A stretch of DNA of 36,279 nt, from NCBI GenBank assembly GCA_964364745.1, contig CAYINJ010000002.1:1-36279 (forward strand). The letters run 5' to 3'. Position numbers and translations under genes: made by a program. Origin of the DNA: an uncultured Gammaproteobacteria bacterium. GTDB lineage: Bacteria; Patescibacteriota; Patescibacteriia; JACRDY01. Each line of letters starts with the position of its first letter. Position 1 is the first letter of the stretch. The notes beneath the pieces were generated by a model, which did not search any database, was not told the origin of the DNA, and saw only the letters and a program-made list of their open reading frames with translations. Shown here piece by piece: positions 7,833-32,707 of the stretch.

Positions 7833-8861
7833 CTAAAATTGTTCCAAGAAGCGTAAGTCGCCGGATTGCAGCAAACGCACATCATCAATGTTGTACTGGA
7901 GCATGGTCAGCCGATCCCAGCCGAAACCAAAAGCAAAGGCGGAGTAGGCCGTGGGGTCAATGCCGCCAGCCTGCAACACTTTTGGATGGACTAGACCGGC
8001 GCCGAACACTTCCAGCCAGCCGGTTTGCTTGCAGACCCGACAGCCCTGGCCGCGGCACAAGAAACAGGTCACTTCGCCGTTGACGCCCGGCTCGACGAAC
8101 GGATAAAACTTCGGCCGGAGACGGACTTTGGTCCCTTCACCATAGAGCTTGACCGCCACTAGCTGAAGCACCGCCTTAAGATGAGCCATGGTGATGTTGG
8201 TATCCACCATTAGTCCTTCCAGTTGATAGAAAGTGTGTTCATGCCTGGCGTCAGTGGCCTCATGGCGAAAGACGCGACCGCGGGCTACCAGCCGCAGTGG
8301 CGCGCCATATTGCCGCATCGCCCGCACTTGCATGGCCGAGGTGTGGGTCCGCAACAGCCGGCGATTCTGCGGATCGCCCGTGCTACCCTCGTCGAGGAAA
8401 AAGGTGTCTTGCATATCCCGCGCCGGGTGATCAGCCGGAATGTTGAGGGCTTCAAAATTGAAATACTCCGACTCGACTTCCGGTCCGTCAGTGATCATAA
8501 AACCCAGCGACGAGAAGAGTTGCTCCAGCCGTTCTTGGACTTGAGTTAACGGATGGAGGTGGCCCACCGGCATGGCCGTACCCGGCAAAGTGGTATCGAT
8601 CGCTGACTGGGTGGCCAACCCTGATAACTGCTGGCGGACTTTGGCCACCTCTTTGGTGACCGCCGTTTTGATGTCGTTGGCCAGCTGGCCCAAATTAGCT
8701 TTCTCTTCTGCCGAGAGGTCTTTTAACTGCCGCAAAACGGCCGTCAGCTCCCCTTTGCGGCCGAGGTATTTGACTTCAAAATCACGCAAGGCCTCGCGAT
8801 TAGCAATCGTCTTGAGCTCGGCAGTAATTTGTTGTTGAAGTTTTTTTAATTGCTCAAGCAT
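7833..8861 (-). CDS. pheS: Phenylalanine--tRNA ligase alpha subunit
   Basis: 342 aa with class II aaRS motifs: FRHEATDARHEHTFYQLEG and GFGWDRLTML. Lies immediately upstream of pheT. Confidence 0.95.
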   Translation of the reverse strand: MLEQLKKLQQQITAELKTIANREALRDFEVKYLGRKGELTAVLRQLKDLSAEEKANLGQLANDIKTAVTKEVAKVRQQLSGLATQSAIDTTLPGTAMPVGHLHPLTQVQERLEQLFSSLGFMITDGPEVESEYFNFEALNIPADHPARDMQDTFFLDEGSTGDPQNRRLLRTHTSAMQVRAMRQYGAPLRLVARGRVFRHEATDARHEHTFYQLEGLMVDTNITMAHLKAVLQLVAVKLYGEGTKVRLRPKFYPFVEPGVNGEVTCFLCRGQGCRVCKQTGWLEVFGAGLVHPKVLQAGGIDPTAYSAFAFGFGWDRLTMLQYNIDDVRLLQSGDLRFLEQF

Positions 8862-10809: not shown

Positions 10810-10930
10810 GTCATTGCGAGGGCCGTTGCGGCCCGCGGCAATCCCAGCGCATATCCCACTAACCGGTTGATGCGCTCAACCTGGGATTGCCGCCCTTCGC
10901 TCCGCTCAGGGTAAACTTCCTCGCAATGAC
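10810..10930. repeat. Palindromic GC-rich repeat element (about 120-bp imperfect hairpin)
   Basis: gtcattgcgagg (10810-10821) is the exact reverse complement of cctcgcaatgac (10919-10930). ggcaatcccag (10837-10847) is the reverse complement of ctgggattgcc (10881-10891). Right-arm segments 10881-10899 and 10903-10924 recur at 11892-11910 and 11915-11936. Confidence 0.7.
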
Positions 10931-10991: not shown

Positions 10992-11495
10992 TTACGAACC
11001 GGTGGCTGCACCGGCTGCGTCTTCGTCGTCTTCGTCGTCCTCGTCGTCGGTCGCGGCGTCTTCGTCGTCGACAGCGCCATCGTCGGCGGCCGCCTGGCTC
11101 TTCTCCCACTGCTCACCGATCAGGCGGAGGACCGTCAAGGCCAGAATCTGATAGACCCGACCGGCGCGCAAACGCTTGGTCAGATGTTCGAACGTTCCGA
11201 GGGCGGCCTCGAAGATGTCCTCGAGGCGGAACGGGCTCCCCTCAACGATCATCCGCAGCTCGATCGAGGTCAGCGTACCGCGCTGCCAGCGGCCGCGCCC
11301 GTCGAAATACCCGACGTTCTTGGCGACAACGTGTTGCAGCCAATCGTCTTCGTCTTTTTCCAAGGCCTTGATATACCCGGCCTTGATTTCCTGGAATCTC
11401 GCGCGCGCTTGGTCCTGATACGACGGCTTTCCGTCGTGTTGCTTCGGACGGCTGGGGGGGCCGCCTTTTCCGTCTCCCCGCTGGCGCTGCGTCAT
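10992..11495 (-). CDS. Hypothetical protein with basic disordered N-terminus and poly-acidic C-terminal tail
   Basis: 167-aa ORF with AGGAGG 5 nt upstream of the ATG (taggaggtttcaATG), its own promoter and its own terminator. The C-terminus is DDGAVDDEDAATDDEDDEDDEDAAG. GC-rich relative to its neighbours. No family recognised. Confidence 0.7.
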   Translation of the reverse strand: MTQRQRGDGKGGPPSRPKQHDGKPSYQDQARARFQEIKAGYIKALEKDEDDWLQHVVAKNVGYFDGRGRWQRGTLTSIELRMIVEGSPFRLEDIFEAALGTFEHLTKRLRAGRVYQILALTVLRLIGEQWEKSQAAADDGAVDDEDAATDDEDDEDDEDAAGAATGS

Positions 11496-11888: not shown

Positions 11889-11970
11889 ACCCTGGGATTG
11901 CCGCCCTTCGACTACGCTCAGGGTAAACTTCCTCGCCCCGCCTTCGGCGGGACTCCGCTCGGGATGACAC
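11889..11970. repeat. Second copy of the ctgggattgccgcccttcg...cgctcagggtaaacttcctcgc repeat, plus an inverted copy of the gtcatcccgagcg motif
   Basis: 11892-11910 and 11915-11936 are identical to 10881-10899 and 10903-10924. cgctcgggatgaca (11956-11969) is the exact reverse complement of 11699-11712. Confidence 0.65.
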
Positions 11971-15777: not shown

Positions 15778-18261
15778 ATGAATCAGTTCGGCTCCACCAA
15801 TTCATTGACTGATCACCTCAAACAATCCTTGACCGCGGCTCACCAGCTGGCTGAAGAGTTGCGCCAAGACACTGTCCAGGCCGAACATTTGCTGTACGGC
15901 TTGTTAATGGTCCGCGGCAGTTTGAGCGGTGAGCTGCTTCACCGACTGACGATCAGTCCCGATCGCGTCAAGGCCTTCATCGTCAGTACCTATGGCCAGT
16001 ACACGACGACCCACGTCCCGCGCCTGTCCGCCACCGCCAAGGGTTTGCTCCAGCACGCCGTCTTATTGGCTGGCACTGCCGGTCATCGGTATGTCGGTAC
16101 CGAGCACCTGCTGACCGCGCTAGTGACTAAACCACTGCTGGGTGTGCGCGACATTTTCCTAATGCACCAGATCTCGCTCCCCCAGCTCGGACAACAACTC
16201 CAGCTGATTTTGCGTAGTACCGGTCGCTTCGCGGACATCCTGTCCGCCGCCAATAGTGACGGGGCTGATCGCGAAGAGGCAGGCCTCTTTGGTAATAGTT
16301 CGGCTAATAATGCTTCTGCCCTTGAACTATTTACGGTTGACTTGACGACTGACACTATTCAGCAAACGATTGATCCGGTCATCGGCCGGGAAGCCGAAAT
16401 CGAACGAGTGACACAGATCCTCTGTCGTCGGACCAAAAATAATCCGATCCTGCTCGGTGACCCGGGCGTGGGCAAAACCGCCATCGTCGAAGGGTTGGCC
16501 AAGAAGATCATGGTCGGCACTGTCCCCGAGGTTCTGACCAACAAAAGAATTTTAATGCTCGATTTGGGACTGCTGCTCGCCGGCACCATGTACCGTGGCG
16601 AGTTTGAGCAGCGACTCAAAAACGTCATCGCGGAAATCAACAAAGACGATTCAATCATCCTCTTCATCGACGAGATTCATACCCTGACTGGCGCTGGCGC
16701 CGCGCCGGGCTCCATGGACGCGGCCAACATCTTAAAGCCCGCTTTGGCTCGTGGTCAGATTCGTTGCATCGGCGCCACGACCCTGGATGAATACCGCAAA
16801 CACATCGAGTCCGATCCCGCTTTGGAGCGGCGCTTCCAGCCAGTCATCGTGGCCGAGCCCACGCCCGATAAGGCGCTCCAGATCCTCCGGGGCATCAAGG
16901 AAAACTATGAGCGCTATCATCACGTGACAATTACTCCGGCGGCGTTGGAGTCGTCGGTGCGGCTCTCCACTCGCTATTTGCCGGAGCGCCGCTTGCCGGA
17001 CAAAGCGATTGATGTAATCGATGAGGCCGCCGCCCGGTATCGCGTCACCCAACCCGGTAGTGGCCTGCCGAAAAAAATTCACGAGATTGAGCACGGCATC
17101 ACTTTGCTGCAGAAAAAAAAGCGCGGCGCGATTACGGCCGAGCGCTACCCCGAGGCCTTGGACTACAAATCACAAGAAGCTATCGCCCAACGTCAGCTCG
17201 CCGCCGTTCAGGCCGAGTGGGCGATCCATCAACAACGGATCATCGGCACCGTGACCGAGCGGGACGTGGCCGAGTTAGTCGCCAAGATGACCGGCGTGCC
17301 GCTGGCTGAACTGGCCACTGATGACCAGGCGAAATTAAAACATCTCGCCCAACGCCTCCAGGAGCATGTCATCGGCCAAACTGAAGCGATCGCCGAACTG
17401 ACCCGGGCCATTCGCCGTTCCCGGGCGGGATTGGCCACGGCCAAACGGCCGATTGGTTCCTTTATTTTCATCGGGCCGTCGGGGGTGGGCAAAACCGAAC
17501 TGGCCAAAGCGCTGGCCAAAGAACTATTCGAAGACGAACAGGCCTTGGTTAAAATTGACATGTCCGAGTTTAAAGAGGGCTTCAATGTCTCCAAACTGAT
17601 TGGCTCTCCGCCCGGCTATGTCGGCTACAAAGAAAGCGGCCAGCTGACCGAAGCCGTCCGCCGCAAGCCCTACAGCGTGGTGCTGTTTGATGAAATTGAA
17701 AAAGCCCACCCGGAGATTTTCAACATTTTGCTCCAGGTAATGGAAGATGGTGAGTTGACTGACGCGACGGGCAAGAAAATCAACTTCCGCAACACCATTA
17801 TCATCATGACCTCCAACGTCGGCCTGAAAGAGTTTATCGGCTCTAAGCACATCGGCTTTGGCGCCAGTGCTAGCCGGCCAGAGATTACCACCGACCTGAA
17901 GCGTCACCTCTTAAAGAGTTTGGGGGACTGGTTCCGGCCGGAATTCCTTAACCGCGTCGATGGTGTCTTGTTCTTCAATCCGCTCGGATTGACCGAACTG
18001 AAGAAAATCACCATCCTGCAATTACAAGAACTAAACCAGCAGTTGGCGAGTCAAGGGTTGAAACTCCGCGCCAACCCGGCGGCGATTCAATTCCTCGCCA
18101 CCCAGGGGGCCGACCAAGAGCAAGGCGCGCGCTTGATCCGGAAAAACGTCCAAGAACTAGTGGCTACACCGCTGGCGGATAAAATCCTGGCCCAAGAAGT
18201 GACAAAAGGTGATATAATAGAGATAACTACGCATGACGGTCAGCTCGTGTTACAGCCGTAA
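15778..18261 (+). CDS. clpC: ClpC-type AAA+ chaperone/unfoldase (two nucleotide-binding domains, short middle domain)
   Basis: Two Clp_N repeats (AEHLLYGLL, GTEHLLTALV). Walker A GDPGVGKT in NBD1 and GPSGVGKT in NBD2. The short coiled-coil linker is ClpC-like rather than ClpB-like. Confidence 0.9.
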   Translation: MNQFGSTNSLTDHLKQSLTAAHQLAEELRQDTVQAEHLLYGLLMVRGSLSGELLHRLTISPDRVKAFIVSTYGQYTTTHVPRLSATAKGLLQHAVLLAGTAGHRYVGTEHLLTALVTKPLLGVRDIFLMHQISLPQLGQQLQLILRSTGRFADILSAANSDGADREEAGLFGNSSANNASALELFTVDLTTDTIQQTIDPVIGREAEIERVTQILCRRTKNNPILLGDPGVGKTAIVEGLAKKIMVGTVPEVLTNKRILMLDLGLLLAGTMYRGEFEQRLKNVIAEINKDDSIILFIDEIHTLTGAGAAPGSMDAANILKPALARGQIRCIGATTLDEYRKHIESDPALERRFQPVIVAEPTPDKALQILRGIKENYERYHHVTITPAALESSVRLSTRYLPERRLPDKAIDVIDEAAARYRVTQPGSGLPKKIHEIEHGITLLQKKKRGAITAERYPEALDYKSQEAIAQRQLAAVQAEWAIHQQRIIGTVTERDVAELVAKMTGVPLAELATDDQAKLKHLAQRLQEHVIGQTEAIAELTRAIRRSRAGLATAKRPIGSFIFIGPSGVGKTELAKALAKELFEDEQALVKIDMSEFKEGFNVSKLIGSPPGYVGYKESGQLTEAVRRKPYSVVLFDEIEKAHPEIFNILLQVMEDGELTDATGKKINFRNTIIIMTSNVGLKEFIGSKHIGFGASASRPEITTDLKRHLLKSLGDWFRPEFLNRVDGVLFFNPLGLTELKKITILQLQELNQQLASQGLKLRANPAAIQFLATQGADQEQGARLIRKNVQELVATPLADKILAQEVTKGDIIEITTHDGQLVLQP

Positions 18262-18296
18262 ATCTTTCATTACTTTTGTTGTCATGATTTCGTTGT

Positions 18297-19109
18297 ATGC
18301 CCCAATCGTTTTCTGACCCGACGACTGGCGGCAGCCAGGGGGAACTGCGGCGGAGTCAGCAGGCCGCTCGGCGACAACGAGCCACTGAACCGCTGACCGC
18401 GCCGGCCTACCAACCAGGTGAGGCCAAGACCTCCGCTGATGGCTTAGGCATCACTCGGCGTCAGTTGACCGCCGCCGGGCAGGAGCGACTCCAGGCCAGC
18501 CAAGGATTATCCGGCGGTCTGGACGCCCGCCGACAATTGATTGATGAGCAACGAGCTGACCGCCAAACCGAGGCAAGTGCCGGTAAACTATTTCAAGAAC
18601 ATCGACAAGCCCGCCGAGCGGCCCGCGGATCAGAAAAATCAAGGGGTCCGTTGGGGCAAGCGATTGGTGAGACCGCCCGCAAAACCGCGTCAGCTGAATT
18701 ACTAAAACAGGCCTGGTTAAACTTAATCGACAGTATTGGTTTGACTTTTCTATACATCTTCTTCCATTTTTGCGCTCGTTACATCGCCGGTAGTCAATCC
18801 TTTTGCGCCTTTGGTGAAGAGTGGTTTATCGCTCCCAGTTCGGGAATGAAAAGTGCCGCCAAAGCTGGGACTACTGGCTCGGCCAAAGCGGCCGCTAAAA
18901 ACCGGGCTAAAGATAGCGTCTCGTCAAGCCAGGGCGGTGGCGATGATAGCGCCACCTTACTGGAACTCGCTAGCAAACCGGTGGAAGTGGCGGAATTGGT
19001 GGTCTTCGGACTGTTGGCCATCTTACTAATGATCGCCCTGGCCGCGCCATTGGTCGGCCTCTTATCAATCGGGTGGTTCTGGCTGGAAGTGGCCAGCGTC
19101 ATATCCTAA
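18297..19109 (+). CDS. Hypothetical membrane protein (disordered Arg/Gln/Ala-rich N-terminus, C-terminal TM helices)
   Basis: 270-aa ORF with ATG at 18297. TM-like segments GLTFLYIFFHFCARYIAG and VVFGLLAILLMIALAAPLVGLLSIGWFWL. First gene of the pilin-module cluster. Confidence 0.65.
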   Translation: MPQSFSDPTTGGSQGELRRSQQAARRQRATEPLTAPAYQPGEAKTSADGLGITRRQLTAAGQERLQASQGLSGGLDARRQLIDEQRADRQTEASAGKLFQEHRQARRAARGSEKSRGPLGQAIGETARKTASAELLKQAWLNLIDSIGLTFLYIFFHFCARYIAGSQSFCAFGEEWFIAPSSGMKSAAKAGTTGSAKAAAKNRAKDSVSSSQGGGDDSATLLELASKPVEVAELVVFGLLAILLMIALAAPLVGLLSIGWFWLEVASVIS

Positions 19110-19137
19110 CAAAAACTTTTCATCTCACCTTTTACAT

Positions 19138-20370
19138 ATGAGCGATCGTTTGAAAAAAATTCTCTTCATTGTTGGTTTCATCGTCATCACGGTGCTGTTG
19201 GGTTACGCGCTGTATGTCCTATTTTTACGGCAAGCGCCAGCGCCAACCGCACCGCCAACCAATGAACTACCGACCGGCGGTCTGCCGACAGCCGGGCTCC
19301 AGGGTGAGCCAACCTACATCAATGTCAACGGCCAGCTCGTCCCAGCCGCCAACGTCAATGGCACTCCCCCATCGACCATTGATTCCTTTGCTCGCGGTGG
19401 CGTCACGGCGGTGACTGAAGTTAGCAACACTAAGATTCGCGCTATGCAGTTTGGTCCGGACGGCAAGTCGTTAGTCGGCTACGATCCCACCAACGGTAAA
19501 TTTTTACGTTACAACCCTGACGGCACGACTACCGCCATGACCGATGCCGCCTTCCCCAACGCCCGCGATATCGTCTGGGCGCCGGACAGCAATAAAGTGA
19601 TCGTCACTTTTCCGGACAACACCAACGTCTATTATAACTTTAAGACCAAAAAACAGATCACTTTCCCCAGCCACTGGAAAGAATTCGAGTTTTCCTCCGA
19701 CAGTAATAAGTTGGCGTTCAAGAACATGCAACTTGATCGGGAAAACCGCTGGGTGACGGTGACTAATGACGACGGTTCGGCCGGTCGGACCATTGCTCCC
19801 ATTGGCGACAACTCGGATAACATCTCCATCATGTGGTCGCCAGACAGCCGGGTGGTCGGCAATTACCGCGAAAGCATCGACTTCGATCGACAGTACCTGA
19901 TCTTCATCGGTCAAAACCAAGAAAATCTTCCCAGTACCATTATTGAAGGTCGGGGATTTGACGGGAAATACACGCCGGACGGCAGCAACTTGCTCTACAG
20001 CGTCTACTCCTCGTTCACTGACCTCAAACCGAATTTGTGGTTTGTCACCGCCAGCGGTGATCAGACCGGTTTGTTGCGGGTGAACTTAGAGCTCAATACT
20101 TGGGTCGACAAGTGCGCCTTTGCCACTTCATCCACGGTGTACTGCGCGGTGCCTCAATCGCTACCGAAGGGCGCCGGACTGGTCCGCGACATTGCCGACA
20201 CCACCCCAGATAACTTTTATAAAGTGGATCTCCGGACCAGCACCAAGACCCTAGTGGCCGTGCCCGATGGATCATTCACCGCTGAAGATGTCACCGTTAG
20301 CGCGGATGGCAAAACCCTGTATTTTACTGATAAGTCCACCGGGACGGCCCATCAGTTGCGATTAAAATAA
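19138..20370 (+). CDS. Membrane-anchored TolB-like beta-propeller (PD40 repeat) protein
   Basis: N-terminal TM helix ILFIVGFIVITVLLGYALYVLF, followed by repeated PD40-like units: FGPDGKSLVGY, YNPDGTT, WAPDSNKVIVTF, WSPDSRVVG, YTPDGSNLLYS, VSADGKTLYFT. Confidence 0.8.
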   Translation: MSDRLKKILFIVGFIVITVLLGYALYVLFLRQAPAPTAPPTNELPTGGLPTAGLQGEPTYINVNGQLVPAANVNGTPPSTIDSFARGGVTAVTEVSNTKIRAMQFGPDGKSLVGYDPTNGKFLRYNPDGTTTAMTDAAFPNARDIVWAPDSNKVIVTFPDNTNVYYNFKTKKQITFPSHWKEFEFSSDSNKLAFKNMQLDRENRWVTVTNDDGSAGRTIAPIGDNSDNISIMWSPDSRVVGNYRESIDFDRQYLIFIGQNQENLPSTIIEGRGFDGKYTPDGSNLLYSVYSSFTDLKPNLWFVTASGDQTGLLRVNLELNTWVDKCAFATSSTVYCAVPQSLPKGAGLVRDIADTTPDNFYKVDLRTSTKTLVAVPDGSFTAEDVTVSADGKTLYFTDKSTGTAHQLRLK

Positions 20371-20376
20371 TTGCCT

Positions 20377-21495
20377 ATGCGGAGGGTATTATTAGTGACA
20401 ATTCTCGCCCTCTTGAGTTGGCAGTTTTTGCTGTTAGCGCCGGTCGCTTTAGCGGAAGCCCCCCAATCACTGCTTTTTGAAAAACCCACCCTCCAGGTTC
20501 AGTTTCCTTCCCTCCAATTTACTGATTCTGAAAACATCATTGCTAAGGGCCAAGGCAAGATTAAGTATTTTGCGATCCCCTGGATTGCCGAGTATATCAC
20601 CGCCGCTTACCGCTTTGGCGTGGCCATCGCCGGGGTGTTGGCCGTGATTATGATTATCGCTGGCGGATTTGTCTGGATGACCGCCGGCGGCAATTCTAGC
20701 CAAGTCGACACGGCCAAAACCTACATCATTGGCGCCCTGGCTGGTTTAGTGTTGGCGCTGGGCAGCTATACCCTCTTGTGGCTGATTAATCCCAACCTCA
20801 CGCAACTGCCTTTCCTGCGGGTGCCGGTAATTCAGCGGGTTGGTTTGGGGGACTTTTGTCCGCTAGTGGTGTCAAGTCAACAAAAAATATTTACTCTTAA
20901 AGAAGATGGTACGGCCGACAAAGAGGTTCCGATCGGCACAACTATACCATGTGGAAAGCGGCTATTTTTGTCCGACGGAGCTGACAACCAATGTATGGGG
21001 TTAGGAGATTGCTCGGGCAGTCAATTGTGCTTGCCAGACTTCAGTAAGGATATTGTGGCGACCGGTCAAGGTAGTCTAAAATTCGAATTTGATTGTTTCT
21101 CTTCTGCTCAAGACCAGTGTAAAAAGTTAAATGACAATCAGGCCGATAAGGTAGGTTTACCGCACCAGCAATCAACCTGTAACCTAATCAACAGCACGCT
21201 CGCCTATCAATCACCGAACACTGAAAATCAAGGTCGGTGCGTGTGGGTGGATAAGAGTATCATTACAGAAATTATTACTGGCGGCTGGTCTGACGACGGC
21301 TGTTACTGGTGTCCGGATGATCGTTACCAAGATATGCTAACAACATTTAAAGAATACAAAATCAACCCGATTGATGATTGTGCCAACGGACTGGGTAAAA
21401 TTTACGGCCAACTTACGGGGATTGAGGCGCTCGGAGAGCTGTTAAGCAGCGAAGATAAAGAGGCCTGCCTAGCACGGTGGTGCGGTGGCCAGTAA
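20377..21495 (+). CDS. Secreted pilin-module protein 1: signal peptide + VirB2/TrbC-like two-helix module + C-terminal 14-Cys domain
   Basis: ATG at 20377 (MRRVLLVTILALL...ALAEA signal). Conserved block IPWIAEYITAAYRFGVAIAGVLAVIMIIAGGFVWMTAGGNSSQVDTAKTYIIGALAGLVLALGSYTLLWLINP. The C-terminal domain of about 210 aa has 14 Cys and no recognised family. Confidence 0.8.
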   Translation: MRRVLLVTILALLSWQFLLLAPVALAEAPQSLLFEKPTLQVQFPSLQFTDSENIIAKGQGKIKYFAIPWIAEYITAAYRFGVAIAGVLAVIMIIAGGFVWMTAGGNSSQVDTAKTYIIGALAGLVLALGSYTLLWLINPNLTQLPFLRVPVIQRVGLGDFCPLVVSSQQKIFTLKEDGTADKEVPIGTTIPCGKRLFLSDGADNQCMGLGDCSGSQLCLPDFSKDIVATGQGSLKFEFDCFSSAQDQCKKLNDNQADKVGLPHQQSTCNLINSTLAYQSPNTENQGRCVWVDKSIITEIITGGWSDDGCYWCPDDRYQDMLTTFKEYKINPIDDCANGLGKIYGQLTGIEALGELLSSEDKEACLARWCGGQ

Positions 21496-21499
21496 TTAT

Positions 21500-22651
21500 A
21501 TGACCCGTTCTTTCTTTTTTGCTTTAATCGCTAGCGCCATTATCTTAATCCCCCAGGTCAGCTTGGCCCTCCTGACTGGCCCTTCGGTTGGTTCGACCTG
21601 CTGTATCTGTGTGAAAGATGGCGTATATGTGGCGGAAGGGGCGGCGTTTCAGTCCCCCGATGGCTTTGGAGCCAAGTGTGCTTCAGAAAGTTGTCAGGTT
21701 GAATATTCGGCTTGTACCGATCAGGCCGTAAAAGACAAGATTAATGGATTGAACACCACGGTCAACTCGGTTACGCCCCTGGTCACGCCCACCACCCAAG
21801 TCGTCATTCCCGGACTGACCTTCACCAAAACACTTGACCTCAAAGACGGGGCCAATGGCTTGAGGTTTTATGAAATACCGTGGATTGCTGAATATATCAG
21901 CGCCGTCTATCGCTGGGGTGTCGGTATCGCCGGCGTGTTGGCGGTGGTGATGATTATCATCGGTGGCTTCACTTGGCTGACCGCCGGGGGTAACTCGAGC
22001 CAAGTTGAAACGGGCAAGAAATATATCATCGGCGCCTTGGCTGGTTTGGTCTTTGTCATGAGTAGTTATACTATTTTGTGGTTGATTAACCCCGAGTTGG
22101 TCAAACTGAAGTCGATTGCTATTCCGTATGTTGAACGATTATCACTGGAGATTCCCGAGTCAGAGCCCGAAAACATTGCCGCCGAAAAAACTGGTAATTT
22201 GACTGCCGTGGGCGAGCGGAAAACAACCGAATTCATCGTCATTCATACTGCCGCTGGACTGCAGAGTCGCAACGAAGTCGACGCTTTCCATCGTACTAAG
22301 GGTTGGGCTGGTATTGGCTATAATTTCTACATTGAACGCAACGGCCAGTGGGTTGAAGGCCGAGGTGAAAGCAAAGTTGGCGCTCACGCGGTGGGCTACA
22401 ATGCTAAAAGCATTGGCATTTCTTATGCCGGCTGCGTTAATTTTCAAGTCGCCAATCAACCTTTGGCGACCGCTCTAGCCAAAGAAACTATCACTCAAAC
22501 CCAACTCGATACTTTAATCGAACACATTAAACAACTACAGCAAAAATATAATATCCCGCGCAATAAAGTACTGGACCACCGTGAAACTGGTGCGCCTAAG
22601 GCCTGCTCTTGCCTGAATATGGACGAGATTAGAGCCAAAATTAATCCGTGA
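21500..22651 (+). CDS. Secreted pilin-module protein 2: signal peptide + 6-Cys module + two-helix pilin-like module + N-acetylmuramoyl-L-alanine amidase (Amidase_2/PGRP type)
   Basis: ATG at 21500. Conserved block IPWIAEYISAVYRWGVGIAGVLAVVMIIIGGFTWLTAGGNSSQVETGKKYIIGALAGLV...SYTILWLINP. C-terminal amidase motifs: EFIVIHTAAG, GWAGIGYNFYIERNG, GAHAVGYNAKSIGISYAG, LDHRE. Confidence 0.85.
   Translation: MTRSFFFALIASAIILIPQVSLALLTGPSVGSTCCICVKDGVYVAEGAAFQSPDGFGAKCASESCQVEYSACTDQAVKDKINGLNTTVNSVTPLVTPTTQVVIPGLTFTKTLDLKDGANGLRFYEIPWIAEYISAVYRWGVGIAGVLAVVMIIIGGFTWLTAGGNSSQVETGKKYIIGALAGLVFVMSSYTILWLINPELVKLKSIAIPYVERLSLEIPESEPENIAAEKTGNLTAVGERKTTEFIVIHTAAGLQSRNEVDAFHRTKGWAGIGYNFYIERNGQWVEGRGESKVGAHAVGYNAKSIGISYAGCVNFQVANQPLATALAKETITQTQLDTLIEHIKQLQQKYNIPRNKVLDHRETGAPKACSCLNMDEIRAKINP
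21573..21753 (+). repeat. 181-bp direct repeat, copy 1 (encodes the 6-Cys N-terminal module of paralog 2)
   Basis: Identical to 22742-22922 except for one base (gtaaaagacaag versus gtaaaggacaag). The protein segment LTGPSVGSTCCICVKDGVYVAEGAAFQSPDGFGAKCASESCQVEYSACTDQAVKDKINGLN is identical in both. Confidence 0.9.
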
Positions 22652-22653
22652 TT

Positions 22654-23931
22654 ATGCGACTCTTTTATTTTCTTCTCCGATTAACTGTCAGCGTTGCCAT
22701 GGTGGTTTTGGTTTTGCTTCCACAAGCTGGGGTAGCCTTATTGACTGGCCCTTCGGTTGGTTCGACCTGCTGTATCTGTGTGAAAGATGGCGTATATGTG
22801 GCGGAAGGGGCGGCGTTTCAGTCCCCCGATGGCTTTGGAGCCAAGTGTGCTTCAGAAAGTTGTCAGGTTGAATATTCGGCTTGTACCGATCAGGCCGTAA
22901 AGGACAAGATTAATGGATTGAATACTAAGATTGAACTTCTCCCCCTGACCCCGCCCGATCTCCAAGTCGACATCCCTGGTTTTCCTAAATTCAGTACCGA
23001 GCTGGAGTTAGACGAGCAAAAGACCTTTTACAATATTCCTTGGATCGCCGAGTATATCAACGCCGTCTACCGTTGGGGGGTGAGCATTGCCGCTGTTTTG
23101 GCGGTGATCATGATTATCGCCGGCGGCCTGACCTGGCTGACGGCCGGCGGCAACAGCAAACAGGTGGAGACCGCCAAGACCTACATCATCGGCGCTTTGA
23201 CCGGTCTGGTGTTGGCCTTGGGCAGCTACACTATTTTGTGGCTGATCAATCCGCAACTAACACTCCTCAAGCCGTTGCGGATTCCCTACGTGCAAAATGT
23301 GGCGCTTGAAGTCGGGCCGCGTATTTCTTCATACTTGATTGCTAATCCCGGCCAAGAAGGCAAAAAAGAACAGTTTAACAACGCTGCTTGTCCAACCAAA
23401 GAAGAGGCCCAGGCCGGTTTTGATGGGTTTATTACTTCTTACTACGCGCCAGCTTATGGTGAAAAAGGCAACTACAGTAGTTTTGAGTGCAACGTAGCGA
23501 TGCAGTGTTCTTGTCCTGGTCCGGGTGGCAATAAATATCATAAAGACGAGTCAAAAACCTGTCGCTTCCCGGCTAAAGTCCTCGGTAAGGGTTTCAGTGA
23601 TAACCCCTGCATGCCCATTCCGGCCGGCAGTATTCCTGGCCAGAGTTATTGTAATAAAAGTGCTTCGGGCACCGCACCAGTTGCTTTCAAAACCGCGGCC
23701 GCTGATATTGCGGGAGACAAGATCGGGGTCAATTGCTGGAGCGTTGGTGACCAGTTTACGATTGAAGGCATTGGTGGCCAAGCGGCTGGTCCCTGGACGG
23801 TCCAAGATAGCGGGTCGGATATTAAGAGTCGCCATTTCGATCTCTTTGTCGGTACTAATTTCCAAGCCACAAAATCAATGGGTGGCGTCTACAAGATTAA
23901 GTTCACCAAGTGTCAAAAATGTGGCTTCTAA
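22654..23931 (+). CDS. Secreted pilin-module protein 3: signal peptide + 6-Cys module + two-helix pilin-like module + C-terminal 3D (MltA-like) domain
   Basis: ATG at 22654. Conserved block IPWIAEYINAVYRWGVSIAAVLAVIMIIAGGLTWLTAGGNSKQVETAKTYIIGALTGLV...SYTILWLINP. C-terminal GFITSYYAP...AADIAGDKIGV...WTVQDSGSDIKSRHFDLFVG matches the 3D-domain pattern DtGgaIkg.riDlf. Confidence 0.85.
   Translation: MRLFYFLLRLTVSVAMVVLVLLPQAGVALLTGPSVGSTCCICVKDGVYVAEGAAFQSPDGFGAKCASESCQVEYSACTDQAVKDKINGLNTKIELLPLTPPDLQVDIPGFPKFSTELELDEQKTFYNIPWIAEYINAVYRWGVSIAAVLAVIMIIAGGLTWLTAGGNSKQVETAKTYIIGALTGLVLALGSYTILWLINPQLTLLKPLRIPYVQNVALEVGPRISSYLIANPGQEGKKEQFNNAACPTKEEAQAGFDGFITSYYAPAYGEKGNYSSFECNVAMQCSCPGPGGNKYHKDESKTCRFPAKVLGKGFSDNPCMPIPAGSIPGQSYCNKSASGTAPVAFKTAAADIAGDKIGVNCWSVGDQFTIEGIGGQAAGPWTVQDSGSDIKSRHFDLFVGTNFQATKSMGGVYKIKFTKCQKCGF
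22742..22922 (+). repeat. 181-bp direct repeat, copy 2 (encodes the 6-Cys N-terminal module of paralog 3)
   Basis: See copy 1. The offset between copies is 1169 bp. Confidence 0.9.
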
Positions 23932-24508
23932 ACTGACCACTTTGCCCCCTTCGTGGTTTGATCGACCGACCCGCCGTGTCGCCCAGGATCTCCTGGGCGG
24001 TGTTTTAGTGCGACGCTGGCGCGGCCGGCTTTATTGCGGTCTGATCACTGAAACTGAGGCCTACTGTGGCCCGCGAGATTTGGCTAATCACGCCAGTCGC
24101 GGCCGAACCGCGCGAACGGAAATTATGTTCGGCCAGCCCGGCCGGGCCTATATTTACTTGATCTACGGCATGTACCACTGTTTTAATATCGTGACCGAAC
24201 CAGAACATTACCCGGCGGCCGTGTTGCTCCGCGGCGTGACCGCCTATGCGCCAATTCCAGCCGGCCAGTCAATTAACCTCACTACCTTAACCCCTTTACC
24301 GATCACCGCTGCCAACGGTCCCGGCAAACTCTGCCGCCAGTTTCACCTGGACCGCTCACTGAACGGCCAGCCGCTGACGACGGCCAGCGGCCTCTGGGTT
24401 CTGCCCCGCCAGCAGCCACCGCGCCGGATCAAAAAACTCCCCCGCGTGGGCATTGACTACGCGGGAGCATATCGAGACAAACCCTGGCGCTACGTCGCCG
24501 AGTGGTAA
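23921..24508 (+). CDS. mpg: 3-methyladenine DNA glycosylase (MPG/AAG family)
   Basis: ITETEAYCGPRDLANHASRGRTARTEIMFGQPGRAYIYLIYGMYHCFNIV is the family signature. The probable GTG start at 23921 overlaps the preceding gene by 11 nt; TTG at 23942 is an alternative. The upstream part of the 327-aa ORF-track entry is out-of-frame overlap with paralog 3. Confidence 0.85.
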   Translation: MASKLTTLPPSWFDRPTRRVAQDLLGGVLVRRWRGRLYCGLITETEAYCGPRDLANHASRGRTARTEIMFGQPGRAYIYLIYGMYHCFNIVTEPEHYPAAVLLRGVTAYAPIPAGQSINLTTLTPLPITAANGPGKLCRQFHLDRSLNGQPLTTASGLWVLPRQQPPRRIKKLPRVGIDYAGAYRDKPWRYVAEW

Positions 24509-24509
24509 G

Positions 24510-26588
24510 TTATTCCCAGTGCACCCGATCCCACTTCCCCACCCGTTGGCGCAACAGCGGGTGGTGATTTAATTGCGGATCAGCGGCCAAAACCGCCAGC
24601 GCCGCCATTTTAGCTCGTTTGATGTTTTTGACATCAAACAGCGTGGCAAATTTAAGCTCGGGGAAACCGCTCTGGTTGCTGCCCAAAACATCGCCCGGCC
24701 CCCGGAGCTTAAGGTCTTGTTCGGCTAAACTAAATCCGTCTTGACTCTTGACCACGGCCGCCAGGCGCTGACCACTCTCCGCCCCGGCCGCGTCAGTCAA
24801 CAGCCAACAATATGACTGGTGTGCTCCCCGCCCCACTCGGCCGCGAAATTGGTGCAGTTGGGCCAGACCAAAACGTTCGGCTCCTTCGATTAACATCATC
24901 GTGGCGTTGGGTACGTCAACCCCCACTTCGATGACTGACGTGGCTACCAGCACGTCAATTTCGCCGGCCACAAACGCGGCCATGACGCGATCTTTCTCGC
25001 TGCTGGTTAGTTTTCCGTGCAGCAGCCCTAACCGCCGATGAGGAAAAACCTCTCGCCCCAGCCGCTCATATTCGGTCTTGACTGCGGCCGACGCGACAGT
25101 CGGTGAGGGATCAATTAGCGGGCAAATGATAAAGGCCTGGCGGCCGGCCGCCAATTCGGCATCAACGGTTCGATATAACTCCGCTCGCTGACTCGGTAAC
25201 ACCACGGCCGTCTTAATCGGCTGCCGGCCGGCCGGTAATTCATCCAGCAGCGAAATGTCTAAGTCGCCATAGAGGGTTAGGGCTAGTGACCGTGGGATTG
25301 GCGTGGCCGTCATCGAGAGAAAGTGTGGGATCAGACCGCTGGGCGACATTTGCTGCAGGGCCTGGCGTTGTTCCACCCCAAAGCGATGTTGCTCATCGAC
25401 AATCGCTAAACCCAGCCGCTGAAACACGACCGCCTCCTGGATCACGGCGTGGGTGCCGATCAGAATTTGGATCGCGCCGCGCCGTAACTGTGACAATAAC
25501 AGCGCTTTAGTGATGGGTTCCGTCCGAGTGGTAATGTGGCGATAAGTGCGGGTATAGACCCCCACCGTCACGCCAGTGTCCACAAATAAACGGCTAAAGC
25601 TCTGGTAGTGTTGCCAAGCCAGGATCTCGGTTGGGGCCATGATCACGGTTTGCTGGCCGGCCGACGCGACTTGGCGGGCGGCGGCGGCGGCCACGATGGT
25701 TTTACCACTGCCGACATCCCCGTCCAGCAGCCGACTCATCGGATGAGCCCGGCCGAGGTCTTGGATTATTTCCCAGGCACTGCGCCGCTGGCATTGAGTT
25801 AATTGATACGGCAGTCGGCCCAAGAAGTCCTTCATCAGGTCAGCGGCAAAGGGAATGGCCGACGCCGCGGCCGCGGCTAGCTCCTGCCGCGACATTTGAT
25901 TGCGGAGCTGGATAAAGAAAAACTCGTCAAAGCGGAGACGTTCTTGAGCGCGGGCTAACGTGGCGGAAGAATCAGGAAAATGTATCTGACTGATGGCCTC
26001 GGTCAAGGAAACAAACCCGTGCTGGTGGATCAATTCAGCCGGCAGATATTCGGCTAGCTGACCGACAGCCGTCAACGCCTGCTTCATTAAAAATCTTAAT
26101 TGCTTGGGAGTAATTCCCTTGGTCACGCTATAAATTGGTACTAGCCGGCCAGTATGGGTCGGGCCGTTGATGGCAGTTCGTGGGTTGATTTTTTCATAAC
26201 TAGCGGCGGCGATCGCCGCCCCACTCGGGTCTGACTTGCCGGAAACACCGAGCGTATCCCCGACTTTGATCGTCCGGGTGACGAATGGCTGATTAAACCA
26301 CCGCACCGTGATGGTGTGCTGACCGTCAGTGATCGCCGCTTCCGTAATCAATAAGTGCCGCTTCCACGAACGGTAGCTTTTGATTCTGGCGACCTGGCCT
26401 TGAATTGTGACCACCTCCCCAGCCGTAATCTGATCCAGCGGTACGAGGTGGCTGAAATCAGCATACCGAAAAGGATAATACTCAACTAGGTCAGCCACGG
26501 TTGCAATGCCGAGCTTTTTCAGCGGCCCACTTAATTGCCGGGCGACATGGTGGAAAGTGGTGACTGGTTGTTGGATCTTAATCCTCAT
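24510..26588 (-). CDS. recG: ATP-dependent DNA helicase RecG
   Basis: Helicase motifs DVGSGKT, DEQHRFG, TATPIPR and QLHQFRGRVGRG, with an N-terminal wedge/OB region. Start set at ATG 26588 (MRIKIQQPV...) because the longer ORF runs through tRNA-Arg. Confidence 0.93.
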   Translation of the reverse strand: MRIKIQQPVTTFHHVARQLSGPLKKLGIATVADLVEYYPFRYADFSHLVPLDQITAGEVVTIQGQVARIKSYRSWKRHLLITEAAITDGQHTITVRWFNQPFVTRTIKVGDTLGVSGKSDPSGAAIAAASYEKINPRTAINGPTHTGRLVPIYSVTKGITPKQLRFLMKQALTAVGQLAEYLPAELIHQHGFVSLTEAISQIHFPDSSATLARAQERLRFDEFFFIQLRNQMSRQELAAAAASAIPFAADLMKDFLGRLPYQLTQCQRRSAWEIIQDLGRAHPMSRLLDGDVGSGKTIVAAAAARQVASAGQQTVIMAPTEILAWQHYQSFSRLFVDTGVTVGVYTRTYRHITTRTEPITKALLLSQLRRGAIQILIGTHAVIQEAVVFQRLGLAIVDEQHRFGVEQRQALQQMSPSGLIPHFLSMTATPIPRSLALTLYGDLDISLLDELPAGRQPIKTAVVLPSQRAELYRTVDAELAAGRQAFIICPLIDPSPTVASAAVKTEYERLGREVFPHRRLGLLHGKLTSSEKDRVMAAFVAGEIDVLVATSVIEVGVDVPNATMMLIEGAERFGLAQLHQFRGRVGRGAHQSYCWLLTDAAGAESGQRLAAVVKSQDGFSLAEQDLKLRGPGDVLGSNQSGFPELKFATLFDVKNIKRAKMAALAVLAADPQLNHHPLLRQRVGKWDRVHWE

Positions 26589-26661
26589 ATAACAAAAAAT
26601 CAGCGGTGACCCCAACTGGGCGGACGGCTGACTTGCTCTGGAATCTTTCAAGATAATGCCT

Positions 26662-26735
26662 CGCGCTTGGCAGGGCTCGAACCTGCGACCTTCAGCTCCG
26701 CAAGCTGACGCTCTATCCATCTGAGCTACAAGCGC
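26662..26735 (-). tRNA. tRNA-Arg (anticodon GCG)
   Basis: Folded by hand into a 74-nt cloverleaf: GCGCTTG TA GCTC AGATGGATA GAGC G TCAGC TTGCGGA GCTGA AGGTC GCAGG TTCGAGC CCTGC CAAGCGC G. CCA is not encoded. Confidence 0.9.
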
Positions 26736-26806
26736 GGACGTATTATCTCGAGGAAACGCTCGTACTCTATCACACCATCTACCGATTGTCTAGCCAGCCC
26801 GCGTGA

Positions 26807-27331: not shown

Positions 27332-27399
27332 ACCACCGTTCTTTTGCCTCACCTGGAGAGATGGCTTGCGCCCTCATTAGATTAGATCCATGAACATTT

Positions 27400-27488
27400 G
27401 GAGAGATGGCTGAGTGGTTGAAGGCGGCGGTCTTGAAAACCGTTATCCCGTGCAAACGGGGTCGTGGGTTCGAATCCCACTCTCTCCG
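27400..27488 (+). tRNA. tRNA-Ser (anticodon TGA)
   Basis: Class II tRNA. Acceptor stem GGAGAGA/TCTCTCC, anticodon loop CTTGAAA, long variable arm TATCCCGTGCAAACGGGGTC, and T-arm GTGGG TTCGAAT CCCAC. Confidence 0.93.
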
Positions 27489-27509
27489 AATCTCTCTGGG
27501 AAAATTTAG

Positions 27510-27600
27510 GGAAAGGTGGCCGAGTGGCTGAAGGCGGCGGTTTGCTAAACCGCTATAGGGTGTTAAAGCCCTATCGAGGGTTCGAATCCCTCCCTTTCCG
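27510..27600 (+). tRNA. tRNA-Ser (anticodon GCT)
   Basis: Class II tRNA. Acceptor stem GGAAAGG/CCTTTCC, anticodon loop TTGCTAA, long variable arm, and T-arm GAGGG TTCGAAT CCCTC. Confidence 0.93.
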
Positions 27601-29712: not shown

Positions 29713-31575
29713 TTAAATGGCGGCGTCCGGAATCGCTCCCGGCGCGGCCGGCTGTCCTTGCTCGGCGGCAAATTGTTCTTTGGCCGCTTGGATTTCCAAT
29801 AATTGTTGGGGGTTGGTAGTGATCAGTTGATCTTCGTTCGGTGAAGCCACCACTTCGATGGCCGCGTGTTTATTGCCAGCGAAGAAAATCCCCTGCCCGA
29901 CGGCCGACTCCAGCAATAGATACTTTTCCCCTTCGGTTAACAAAAATGTTTTTTGGACTCGATCAATCGACGCCGGTGACTGCTTCATCAACAGCTGTAG
30001 CGCCGAGTTGTTGACGATCGCTTGGCCGTAGGGCGAAAGTAAAAAGTCATTGACATCTTGGGTGATAGTGGTGACGCCGAGATAGTACTTGCGGCAGCGT
30101 TTGACCAAGGCATAGATAAACTTGGCCGAGTCCTCTTGTTGCATCAACCACCAGGCCTCATCGATGATCAACAGTCGCTTTTTGCTCTGGGACCGAACGA
30201 CGTTCCAAATGTAGTTGACGAGGTTATAGATCGCCAGCGGCCGGAGCTCGTCTTCGAGATCGCGGACCGAAAAACAAACCAACTGGTTGTCCATGTCAAC
30301 GTTAGTCGGCCGATTCAGCAGCCCGGCAAAGGTGCCTTCGGTATGCTTTTTCAGTCGCAGCGCGACGTTGGCGCCGCCCTCCATCCCCTCCAAAATATCA
30401 ACTAAATCCTGCATAATTGGCGGCTCGACCGTCGCCAAATCCGACTCGGGAGTGATATCTTTTTTGGCGTAGGTCTCCAGCAGCGCCCGGTCCACGATCG
30501 AGTCCTCTTCGGCCGTCAGCGAACCGACCATCAGTCGCACCAACCCCTTGACGGTGATGACGGCGCTGCGAATAATATCTTCGACCGTGAAATCCTTGTC
30601 CACCGGCCGCGGCAGGTCAAAGGGGTTGACTTTACTGTCGGAGGCCAGCGAAATGTTGATGTAAGTACCACCGACGGCCTCACACAGCCGCTGGTATTCT
30701 TTTTCCGGATCAATCACGATAATGTCAGTCCCCAGCATCAAGCTGCGCAAGATCTCCAGTTTAACCGTGTAGCTCTTGCCGGCGCCGGCCGTGGCAAAGA
30801 CCACCATGTTGGCGTTTTGGAGTGAGAAGCGGTCGAACAGAATTAAGCTGTTATTGTGGCGGTTGATGCCGTATAAAATACCGTTATTTGATGACAATTC
30901 AAAGGAGATAAAGGGAAATGACGAGGCAGCCGGTGATGTATTCATGTTGAAAACGACAGTGAGTTCATCTCGGCCGAGCGGCAAAGTGGAAGTAAACCCT
31001 TGTTCGGCCTGATAGAGCACATTGCGCGAGTAGACCAGCTTCGAGCCAAAAATGTCTTCAAGGTTGCGGGTGCGATCTTCAAGTTGTTCGAGGGTGTCGG
31101 CGTACAGCGTGACGTACAAAGCATACTGAAAGAAGTGCTCGATACCTTGGGTCAAGTCATCGCGCAGTTTTTCGATGTCTTGTAGCGCCGTTTCCCGCAA
31201 GGGATCGCGCGGCGCGCCTTTTTCCCGGTCGGCACTCAATTCGGCTTCTAAATTCCCGGCTCGTTTCTTGAGATCTTTTAAGATCGCGCCGGCCTTGACC
31301 GGATAGAAATGCATGGCAATATCAATCGGCGTCGGGAAGTTGATGATCGGCACGAACCAACCGACGGCAATATAGCGCGGATAGGTAATGACAAACGCCG
31401 TCCGGACATATTTGTTGCCCAGCCGGACATAAGTCGACTGAATATCCATCGCCGATGGCGCGATCAGGTCAATGATCGAGATCGTGCCGGCGCGATAGCG
31501 CTGCTCTTCGATCAGCGCTTCTTTACCGATCGCGACCGTGGCGTCGACAGCGGGTTTTTTAGTAAATAAGGCCAT
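29713..31575 (-). CDS. virB4: VirB4-family type IV secretion ATPase (Gram-positive/TrsE-like type)
   Basis: 620 aa. Walker A VVFATAGAGKSYTV, Walker B RLLIIDEAWW, and the N-terminal VirB4 domain pattern (YVRTAFVITYPRYIAVGWFVPII). Confidence 0.9.
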   Translation of the reverse strand: MALFTKKPAVDATVAIGKEALIEEQRYRAGTISIIDLIAPSAMDIQSTYVRLGNKYVRTAFVITYPRYIAVGWFVPIINFPTPIDIAMHFYPVKAGAILKDLKKRAGNLEAELSADREKGAPRDPLRETALQDIEKLRDDLTQGIEHFFQYALYVTLYADTLEQLEDRTRNLEDIFGSKLVYSRNVLYQAEQGFTSTLPLGRDELTVVFNMNTSPAASSFPFISFELSSNNGILYGINRHNNSLILFDRFSLQNANMVVFATAGAGKSYTVKLEILRSLMLGTDIIVIDPEKEYQRLCEAVGGTYINISLASDSKVNPFDLPRPVDKDFTVEDIIRSAVITVKGLVRLMVGSLTAEEDSIVDRALLETYAKKDITPESDLATVEPPIMQDLVDILEGMEGGANVALRLKKHTEGTFAGLLNRPTNVDMDNQLVCFSVRDLEDELRPLAIYNLVNYIWNVVRSQSKKRLLIIDEAWWLMQQEDSAKFIYALVKRCRKYYLGVTTITQDVNDFLLSPYGQAIVNNSALQLLMKQSPASIDRVQKTFLLTEGEKYLLLESAVGQGIFFAGNKHAAIEVVASPNEDQLITTNPQQLLEIQAAKEQFAAEQGQPAAPGAIPDAAI

Positions 31576-31578
31576 AGA

Positions 31579-32277
31579 TTAACCACTAAGCTGAATCTTG
31601 CCCACGGCCGCTAACGGTTCTTGTTCGGAAGTGTCGGGGTTGTATGAGTTGTAGTACAGCTCAATCAGCCCTTGGGTGTCGAGTCGGGTGGCCGATAACC
31701 CCACTGATCCCAGCCCATTAGCTGTCTGCCCCACTCGCTGTTCTAGTTCTTTCATCCGTTGCTCAAACTTTTTGGCACTTAATTTTACCAGCGACGCCGG
31801 CGTAAATAACTCTTGGAGTCGGGACCAAAAACTCCGCTGTTTATCGGAGAGCGGATCGTACGGCACGACAACATAGAACCGCTTGGTCATGATGTCGCCT
31901 AAGCTGATCAGCTCACCGACGTACTGGCGGTAGTCGCTGATTTGATTGCGCAACAATTCATTGCTTTGTTCCTTTTCTATTTTTTCCAAATTTTGCAAAT
32001 AGGGAGTGATGTCGGTTTTCCGTGACTGGACGACAATTTGCAGCGGGTAATTCAAGGAGTTCAAAAACCCCATGTAAGCGCTAATGATCGCCTCTTGTTC
32101 ACCGGTCGACTTCAGCGCGAAGTTGATACTAGACACCATCAGTACGCCCCGCAGAGTGCCGTCGCGCATGACGACCGTACTGTTGCGAATTTCCGCGATC
32201 GGCAAGCTGCGTTGGGTCGCGGGGTATTTACTTTTTGGTTTTGACGCCATAATTGTTTGATTGGTCGTCGAGCTCAT
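31579..32277 (-). CDS. Hypothetical soluble protein resembling a stand-alone VirB4 N-terminal domain (no ATPase motifs)
   Basis: 232 aa. IAEIRNSTVVMRDGTLRGVLMVSSINFALKSTGEQEAIISAYMGFLNSLNYPLQIVVQSRK follows the N-domain pattern of VirB4/TrbE proteins, with no Walker A. The stop is 3 nt before the virB4 start. An alternative ATG lies at 32250. Confidence 0.7.
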   Translation of the reverse strand: MSSTTNQTIMASKPKSKYPATQRSLPIAEIRNSTVVMRDGTLRGVLMVSSINFALKSTGEQEAIISAYMGFLNSLNYPLQIVVQSRKTDITPYLQNLEKIEKEQSNELLRNQISDYRQYVGELISLGDIMTKRFYVVVPYDPLSDKQRSFWSRLQELFTPASLVKLSAKKFEQRMKELEQRVGQTANGLGSVGLSATRLDTQGLIELYYNSYNPDTSEQEPLAAVGKIQLSG

Positions 32278-32707
32278 GCGACGAGTAGGCCCCGCCAGTG
32301 TTGACTACCAGCGCCAGCTCGTCTAGCCGAGAGCGGGCGGCAAAATGTTTGACCGGGACCACCAGTTCTTTCGTTTCCTCAATCGCCGGGGCCAGCAATT
32401 CTTTAACTTCCACTGCCGTCAGTTGTTTATTCCACAGCCGGCGGCGGGAGCGCTTCAGGGTCTCCATGACATTGAGGAAAAAATAATGGAACGGGCGGCC
32501 GTTGACCTTGAGAAACGCCACGATGCCAAAAATACCAAAGGTCAGTACGCCGAAGATCACGAAGGCCCAAAAATCAAACAGCTTATACTCGGCGGCGATT
32601 AAGAGCATGCCGACTAACATAATAATAAACTGCCGGACCGTGATCGGCCCGATGATTTTCGGTTCGACATCAATGAATTGCGGGACTAGAAAATGATCAA
32701 GGGCCAT
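32228..32707 (-). CDS. PrgI-family (VirB3-like) small membrane protein
   Basis: FLVPQFIDVEPKIIGPITVRQFIIMLVGMLLIAAEY followed by a second TM helix FVIFGVLTFGIFGIVAFL. Typical PrgI architecture and typical position upstream of virB4. Confidence 0.75.
   Translation of the reverse strand: MALDHFLVPQFIDVEPKIIGPITVRQFIIMLVGMLLIAAEYKLFDFWAFVIFGVLTFGIFGIVAFLKVNGRPFHYFFLNVMETLKRSRRRLWNKQLTAVEVKELLAPAIEETKELVVPVKHFAARSRLDELALVVNTGGAYSSHELDDQSNNYGVKTKK

Follow-up and report, generated by a model that had tools for sequence, protein, structure and literature searches.

The Pilin Gene Array and Its Repeated Tract

The stretch of DNA considered here, hereafter the window, comprises 36,279 nucleotides (nt) of contig CAYINJ010000002.1 (assembly GCA_964364745.1), from an uncultured, ultra-small bacterium deposited as a gammaproteobacterium and assigned by GTDB to the Patescibacteriota, and it carries three paralogous genes, P1, P2, and P3, in which a pilin-like membrane hairpin is fused to other domains. 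These three open reading frames (ORFs) lie in the same direction on the forward strand, with overlapping stop and start codons. P1 (20371–21495) consists of a signal peptide, a pilin hairpin (approximately 20569–20808), and, at the C-terminus, a Cys-rich domain of unassigned fold. P2 (21500–22651; ATG at 21500, alternative GTG at 21485) encodes, in order, a signal peptide, a Cys-rich N-terminal module (the N-module), a linker (21754–21868), a VirB2-like pilin module with a two-helix membrane hairpin (21869–22108, as placed by hidden Markov model coordinates and a Pfam match), and an Amidase_2 domain, while P3 (22654–23931; ATG at 22654, alternative GTG at 22648) begins with the same four parts (hairpin at approximately 23029–23268) and continues into a Cys-rich region and a 3D domain (approximately 23743–23889). 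A scan of positions 18000–24700 for promoters and terminators returned no more sites than were found in shuffled sequence, so that only the overlapping stop and start codons point to an operon.

The central observation concerns the N-module, which is present in P2 and P3 and absent from P1. Its two copies, copy A in P2 (21573–21753, forward strand) and copy B in P3 (22742–22922, forward strand), agree at 180 of 181 bases, and the single mismatch between them (21733 A versus 22902 G, the copies lying 1169 bp apart in register) falls on the third position of a Lys codon (AAA/AAG) and is synonymous. An independent repeat search recovered the same pair as 21566–21756 and 22735–22925 at 97%, and a match map places identity at background directly beyond both ends of the tract; against a background of 75%, the chance of at least 180 matches in 181 positions is approximately 1.5e-21 (181 x 0.25 x 0.75^180). 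Each copy keeps the reading frame of its gene, and the two translate to one and the same run of 64 residues (ALLTGPSVGSTCCICVKDG...DQAVKDKINGLNT), which includes six Cys and separates the signal peptide from the linker. Given that the start of the tract falls no more than a codon away from the points at which leader cleavage is predicted (SLA↓LL and GVA↓LL), and that its end immediately precedes the linker, it corresponds to one mature N-terminal domain. Neither a third copy of the module nor a silent cassette was found by whole-window self-BLAST.

The divergence of the two genes on either side of this tract was profiled by the Nei-Gojobori method on a P2–P3 codon alignment, yielding estimates of synonymous (dS) and nonsynonymous (dN) substitution. 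In the signal peptides dS is saturated and dN is 0.57 (46% nt identity); in the N-module dS is approximately 0.02–0.05 (0.05 for the block with the boundary codon) and dN is 0; in the linker dS is 1.8 and dN 0.55 (54% nt identity); and in the pilin module dS is 2.0 and dN 0.19 (70% nt identity), the proportion of synonymous differences (pS) there being 0.70 as against at most 0.05 in the N-module. Similarity of the pilin modules is thus maintained by purifying selection on the protein, whereas the N-modules are identical at silent sites too and must therefore share a very recent common DNA ancestor. Synonymous divergence within the tract is far below that of the flanking sequence of the same gene pair, which is the pattern by which gene conversion is recognized. 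An earlier sequence-only reading of this DNA had reported the single-base difference, the common 6-Cys module, and the visibly diverged adjoining pilin modules, and had proposed a dN/dS and identity profile along the paralogs; direct comparison and translation bear out the first two of these observations, and the profile, which is near zero in the module and reaches a dS of 1.8–2.0 in the linker and pilin module, gives substance to the third. Its labels for the neighboring parts, a pilin-like module and an amidase in P2, likewise hold up against the family matches that follow.

Domain Composition of the Three Paralogs

A module of approximately 80 residues belonging to the Pfam family T4SS_pilin (PF18895) is common to P1, P2, and P3, and the three copies are mutually 74–80% identical at the amino acid (aa) level. 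P2 matches the family with 35.0 bits, above the gathering cut-off of 26.6, and P3 (24.6 bits) and P1 (19.8 bits, E 8e-4) score just below it; weak matches to TrbC (PF04956) were obtained for relatives at two further loci, L015 and L023. Leaders that are hydrophobic and terminate in SLA or GVA are readable in the sequence, and the proteins display the layout of T4SS_pilin members, in which the signal peptide precedes a pair of hydrophobic helices connected by a short polar loop. An AlphaFold2 model of P3, computed from a 6-sequence alignment, is of low confidence (mean predicted local distance difference test score, pLDDT, 43.9) and places helices at residues 129–162 and 168–198 around a TAGGNS loop.

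The C-terminal parts are of different kinds. That of P2 (22223–22600, forward strand; residues 247–372 of the 388-aa ORF) is an N-acetylmuramoyl-L-alanine amidase domain of the T7 lysozyme/PGRP type, which matches Amidase_2 (PF01510) with E 4e-16 (60 bits, cut-off 26) and finds amidases in the PDB (6srt, E 1.5e-15; T7 lysozyme, E 1e-12); its predicted zinc ligands, read from the motifs VIHTAAG and DHRE...KACSC, would be His...His...Cys. The C-terminus of P3 matches the 3D family (PF06725) with 27.3 bits against a cut-off of 23.8, a search of the PDB with the P3 sequence returned matches attributable to transmembrane-composition noise only, and the Cys-rich C-terminal region of P1 matched no family. 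Among the homologs of these genes, the hydrolase-type C-termini carried on the pilin scaffold include Amidase_2, 3D, M15_4, M23, SLT, VanY, and a C39-like peptidase. The N-module itself has a much narrower distribution, as an exhaustive phmmer search of a 69-residue module sequence against 1.84 billion representative proteins retrieved only itself and two spurious repeat proteins; apart from the homologs described below, which belong to close relatives, the module is a lineage-specific orphan.

Related Loci and the History of the Module

A first scan of species-representative genomes with P3 as the query produced no relative, and the use of the neighboring beta-propeller protein as an anchor in the same genomes yielded only distant ones (30–40% identity). 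A metagenome scan with this anchor added three loci (a contig of the organism that carries the L002 locus, a 39% relative, and a weak 27% partial match) and no intermediate strains that would permit a population-level test. Loci of the same synteny occur in metagenome-assembled genomes (MAGs) labeled Ca. Uhrbacteria or Patescibacteria, and between one and five pilin-fusion genes were detected per locus; in L002, L021, L023, and L006 they lie downstream of the beta-propeller gene. Orthologs of P1 were recognized as P0015 in L020 and as genes in L002, L021, and L023, and those of P3 as P0014 in L002 (55–58% identity) and P0033 in L021 (43%).

The most informative of these loci is L020 (Logan ERR15087771), which represents the nearest other species (beta-propeller neighbor 77% identical in aa sequence, P1 56% identical). 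Its P1 is followed by an ortholog of P2 whose linker and pilin start match those of the window P2 (TVTPLYTPTTQVIIPGLTFTKTFDL... versus SVTPLVTPTTQVVIPGLTFTKTLDL...), and by DNA alignment the P2 linker of the window is orthologous to this linker and not to that of P3. The N-module of the L020 gene is nevertheless a different Cys-rich sequence, which scores against the window module with a z of approximately 0, no better than shuffled controls. The parts of P2 therefore have incongruent affinities, its module being that of the window P3 and its linker grouping with the P2 of L020. A comparison with related genomes had been put forward in the sequence-only reading as a check, and it is this orthologous linker beside an unrelated module that it has now supplied.

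Elsewhere, a module of the CCxC type is associated with the last gene of the array. L002 (beta-propeller neighbor 61% identical) possesses P1 and P3 only, without an amidase paralog, and its P3 bears a diverged homolog of the module (z 5.8); scoring of the L002 and L021 copies for homology with the window module gave z values of 5.5–6.9. L021 (GCA_041650515.1) has four paralogs, of which the last (with a 3D domain) and the penultimate (with a Peptidase_M15_4 domain) both carry a CCxC-type module; each of these two modules is most closely related to the other (41% identity, z 19.5), and the sharing of a module between these positions is thus recurrent. In L023 (GCA_964550465.1) a CCxC module, assigned by motif, is found on the last paralog only, and the second paralog, which bears a Peptidase_M23 domain, carries a Cys-rich module of another kind. 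The CCxC module type, by its occurrence in four lineages (window, L002, L021, and L023), is an ancestral and stable attribute of the array's last gene, and in the window and L021 it has appeared on the neighboring gene as well.

A broader tendency toward similarity within a genome is seen in the pilin modules, which were compared for the window (20569–20808, 21869–22108, and 23029–23268), L002 (4967–7278), L021 (3633–8296), and L023 (7001–11977). In these loci the pilin modules are 72–85% identical in aa sequence within a genome versus 57–68% between positional orthologs, and the C-terminal domains track orthology (the P3 domains of the window and L002, for example, are 69% identical). The clustering of pilin modules by genome fits either older concerted evolution or the co-adaptation of interacting subunits, both of which remain compatible with the data because synonymous sites are saturated. 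In L015 (Patescibacteria MAG H43-bin053), two adjacent pilin modules (6630–6873 and 7709–7952) share 89.8% identity across 244 nt (94% at the aa level) although the N- and C-terminal parts of the same pair are unrelated, the homogenized unit there being the pilin module and not the N-module.

A Second Assembly of the Locus

The two-copy arrangement is also present in a second assembly, L001 (ENA ERZ1292636), a 3784-bp contig from Hainich groundwater with a coverage of approximately 3, which aligns without gaps to window positions 20096–23879 at 99.7% identity and includes the two copies of the module together with the two junctions. Ten differences separate the two sequences. Eight of them (seven C>A or G>T and one G>A) fall within the 56 bp of 23342–23397 (L001 3247–3302), where they create a premature stop that would cut P3 to 238 aa; this cluster probably consists of low-coverage sequencing errors, and it may alternatively represent a real hypermutated or pseudogenized allele. 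The remaining two, at 22902 and 22923, lie in the P3 copy, and at both L001 carries the base of P2, with the result that its module copies reach 100% identity and the tract extends a few bases further than in the window. The chance that two independent mutations would both fall within one 184-bp tract of 3784 bp is approximately 0.2%, and a single further conversion event would account for both, which suggests that exchange is continuing. These strain differences are no more than suggestive, since the coverage of L001 is low.

Probable Gene Conversion and Its Alternatives

The foregoing evidence makes it probable, with a good deal of confidence, that P2 and P3 have undergone recent, probably recurrent, non-reciprocal gene conversion limited to the N-module. 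Such an origin, or a cassette exchange, was what the sequence-only reading had surmised, and it is strengthened by the contrast between a module dS of approximately 0.02–0.05 and the values of 1.8–2.0 next to it, as well as by the unrelated module of L020. If both genes once possessed the module, RecA-type pairing and strand invasion would find sufficient similarity in the 181-bp island alone, and non-reciprocal homologous recombination could homogenize it while the flanks continued to diverge; tracts of this kind end at the edges of homology, hence the sharp and domain-precise boundaries. An ancestor of P2 with a diverged CCxC module, as in L021_c, would need nothing beyond ordinary conversion. 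P3 is the likely donor (copy B) and P2 the likely recipient (copy A), because every related lineage examined has the CCxC module on the last gene of its array and because the P2 module of L020 is unrelated to it. The observed identity is probably the latest round of recurrent homogenization rather than the product of a one-off swap. Unequal crossing-over within the pilin modules was also considered as the source of the P2 module and was ruled out, as the linker of P2 is orthologous to that of the L020 P2 and not to that of P3. The direct repeats could in addition serve as the substrate for a 1169-bp deletion that removes the pilin and amidase parts of P2 and leaves a fusion of the P2 leader to P3; this possibility is logically sound, and its predicted product would resemble the array architecture of L002.

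Several considerations weigh against this interpretation. The donor direction is a matter of parsimony over five lineages, and the strain polymorphism, coming from a 3x-coverage contig with a cluster of eight probable errors, is suggestive only. SNPs (single-nucleotide polymorphisms) deep inside the repeat could have been homogenized by the assembler, and the clustering of pilin modules by genome could reflect subunit co-adaptation rather than conversion. Most pertinently, if the ancestor of P2 had an unrelated module, as L020 has, then the first acquisition of the present one would demand an in-frame non-homologous step that conversion leaves unexplained.

That last point leads to an unlikely alternative, in which an L020-like module of P2 was swapped only once, in a very recent domain replacement through two illegitimate or microhomology junctions and with no earlier homogenization. 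The unrelated N-module beside an orthologous linker in L020 speaks for such a replacement, the different Cys-rich module on the second paralog of L023 is in keeping with it, and the flanks of the tract (46–54% nt identity) are too diverged for homologous pairing. It requires, nonetheless, two in-frame illegitimate joints placed exactly at domain boundaries, and it sits poorly with the penultimate and last modules of L021, whose 41% identity documents an older shared state followed by divergence, and with the differences between L001 and the window inside the tract, which suggest more than one exchange. A very improbable explanation is that the identity arose in assembly, from a graph node that was collapsed or duplicated by mistake or from two strains joined in a chimera, so that the organism really has one copy or two much more diverged ones. 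The contig does derive from a metagenome assembly, its consensus contains errors (as the dnaE frameshift described below indicates), and a 181-bp repeat exceeds common k-mer sizes, such that internal SNPs could be homogenized; yet the copies are in frame in intact genes, each with its own leader and linker, one copy-specific SNP is kept in the window, and an assembler is unable to make 181 bp of identity out of sequences that are 70–75% identical. L001, in which both junctions recur in the same order, likewise leaves the artefact raised in the sequence-only reading with little in its favor.

Selection on the nucleotide sequence itself, through an RNA structure, a regulatory site, or a template/variable pair like that of a diversity-generating retroelement (DGR), would dispense with recombination altogether, and its probability is almost negligible. 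The sole difference between the copies being A versus G is a point in favor of a DGR-like pair, because a DGR would mutate template adenines. Against it, the two repeats are N-terminal coding sequences rather than a C-terminal variable region with a non-coding template, they differ at one position only, and no reverse transcriptase was detected among the larger ORFs of the window that were scanned against Pfam; a DGR is accordingly unlikely. An RNA structure is not supported by the fold z of −0.68, which shows that the tract is not unusually structured (48 of 200 shuffles fold as well), and the region has no Rfam match. Moreover, the high divergence of the orthologous modules in L002 and L021 implies that the nucleotide sequence is under no long-term constraint.

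Genomic Setting

Upstream of the array lie genes for ClpC, a membrane protein, and the beta-propeller protein, and downstream of it a methylpurine-DNA glycosylase gene and recG. A type IV secretion cluster is located approximately 6 kb from the array on the opposite strand, with a VirB4/TraG-like ATPase (29713–31575, minus strand; Pfam P-loop_TraG, E 2e-28), the N-terminal part of this ATPase (31579–32277, minus strand; 232 aa, weak TraC_F_IV match), and a PrgI/VirB3-like gene (32228–32707, minus strand; PrgI, E 2.4e-6). The ATPase (29713–32277) is thus divided into two ORFs of one frame, which are split by a TAA and one codon (31579–31581). The presence on one contig of three tandem pilin genes together with VirB4-like genes places the array among the VirB2-like pilin arrays that PMC12102498 catalogues for Patescibacteria.

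Several further features of the window are recorded here in their own right. The gene for DNA polymerase III alpha, dnaE (1454–4980, minus strand), is divided between two ORFs in different frames, one with the PHP and NTPase domains and the other with the finger, HhH, and OB domains, and a conserved GLLKIDFLGLKNL motif straddles their junction near 3355–3365; the split is a frameshift, stemming either from an assembly indel or from a real interruption. A tRNA-Arg(GCG) gene (26661–26736, minus strand) is situated within the 5' end of the longest ORF for recG (24510–26720), and the true start of recG must therefore be further downstream; a tandem pair of tRNA-Ser genes occupies 27399–27600. Lastly, a 46-nt direct repeat (95.7% identical, 10880–10924 and 11891–11936) flanks a segment of approximately 1 kb that may be a small inserted element and that contains several short palindromic motifs and a minus-strand ORF (10992–11495) with no Pfam match, whose product has an acidic, Asp-rich C-terminal tail (GAC/GAA-rich run at 11020–11075).

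Functional Implications and Relation to Known Systems

In the standard topology of VirB2/TrbC proteins both termini are extracytoplasmic, and by analogy the N-module and the C-terminal hydrolase domain of P2 and P3 would both face outward. P2 and P3 may be membrane-anchored wall-remodeling enzymes that act in place of VirB1, or they may decorate a pilus-like structure aimed at a host wall. Through conversion, the same surface or targeting domain would be present on the amidase protein and on the 3D-domain protein. A more ambitious proposal, which is improbable, is that the N-modules are interchangeable targeting or adhesion cassettes of a hydrolase-displaying, pilus-like filament on an epibiont; conversion would then be selected for keeping the subunits matched to one host ligand, or for re-assorting them upon a change of host, and the repeats might act as a switch by which the amidase is deleted or restored.

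The closest evolutionary precedent is Bartonella's type IV secretion system (T4SS) Trw, in which the tandem trwL (virB2) and trwJ genes reportedly evolve in concert (Nystedt et al., 2008, Mol Biol Evol 25:287, as cited in PMC2610397 and PMC12102498). As in that system, the window contains tandem T4SS pilin paralogs that would form surface-exposed variants and that combine recombination between copies with diversification. Bartonella, however, is an alphaproteobacterium of the diderm type whose VirB2 pilins are short and canonical, whereas the genes described here are multi-domain pilin-hydrolase fusions of a monoderm bacterium of the Candidate Phyla Radiation (CPR), and the unit exchanged is an accessory N-terminal domain to which the tract is confined. 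Bacterial surface-protein families that undergo segmental gene conversion offer a second comparison. In Neisseria pilE/pilS, Mycoplasma genitalium MgPa/MgPar, and Anaplasma msp2, silent and promoterless donor cassettes generate diversity in one expression site. The transfer at the present locus is, like theirs, non-reciprocal, short, and coding, with sharp tract ends and preservation of the reading frame, but here both copies are complete and apparently co-transcribed, and the outcome is homogenization rather than diversification.

With the Patescibacteria arrays of PMC12102498 the locus shares its tandem PF18895/VirB2-like hairpin genes, its setting in a CPR genome with VirB4 and PrgI/VirB3, and its synteny across relatives. 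The identities that this catalogue gives for members of one array average 25% and do not exceed 54% (aa; Quinonero-Coronel et al., 2025), as opposed to 100% for the 64-residue domain and 74–80% for the pilin modules in the window. Text searches of the same article returned no description of pilin-hydrolase fusions or of swappable Cys-rich N-modules, nor any mention of gene conversion in Patescibacteria arrays. The biological weight of such arrays is indicated by Ca. Southlakia epibionticum, the one species tested, in which a pilin array is essential and T4SS genes and arrays are needed for epibiotic growth (Wang et al., 2023, as summarized in PMC12857230).

Gene conversion between tandem paralogs is a textbook mechanism, and it is the setting that is new. 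To what is known of such arrays the locus adds that their members can be multi-domain proteins, in which a small Cys-rich domain at the N-terminus accompanies a hydrolase domain for the cell wall, and that these domains may be re-assorted between neighboring genes on very short time scales, with the array evolving in concert within a genome. The domain-precise tracts, and the sharing of one surface domain by two hydrolases, may accordingly provide a handle on where in these proteins selection driven by the host is acting.

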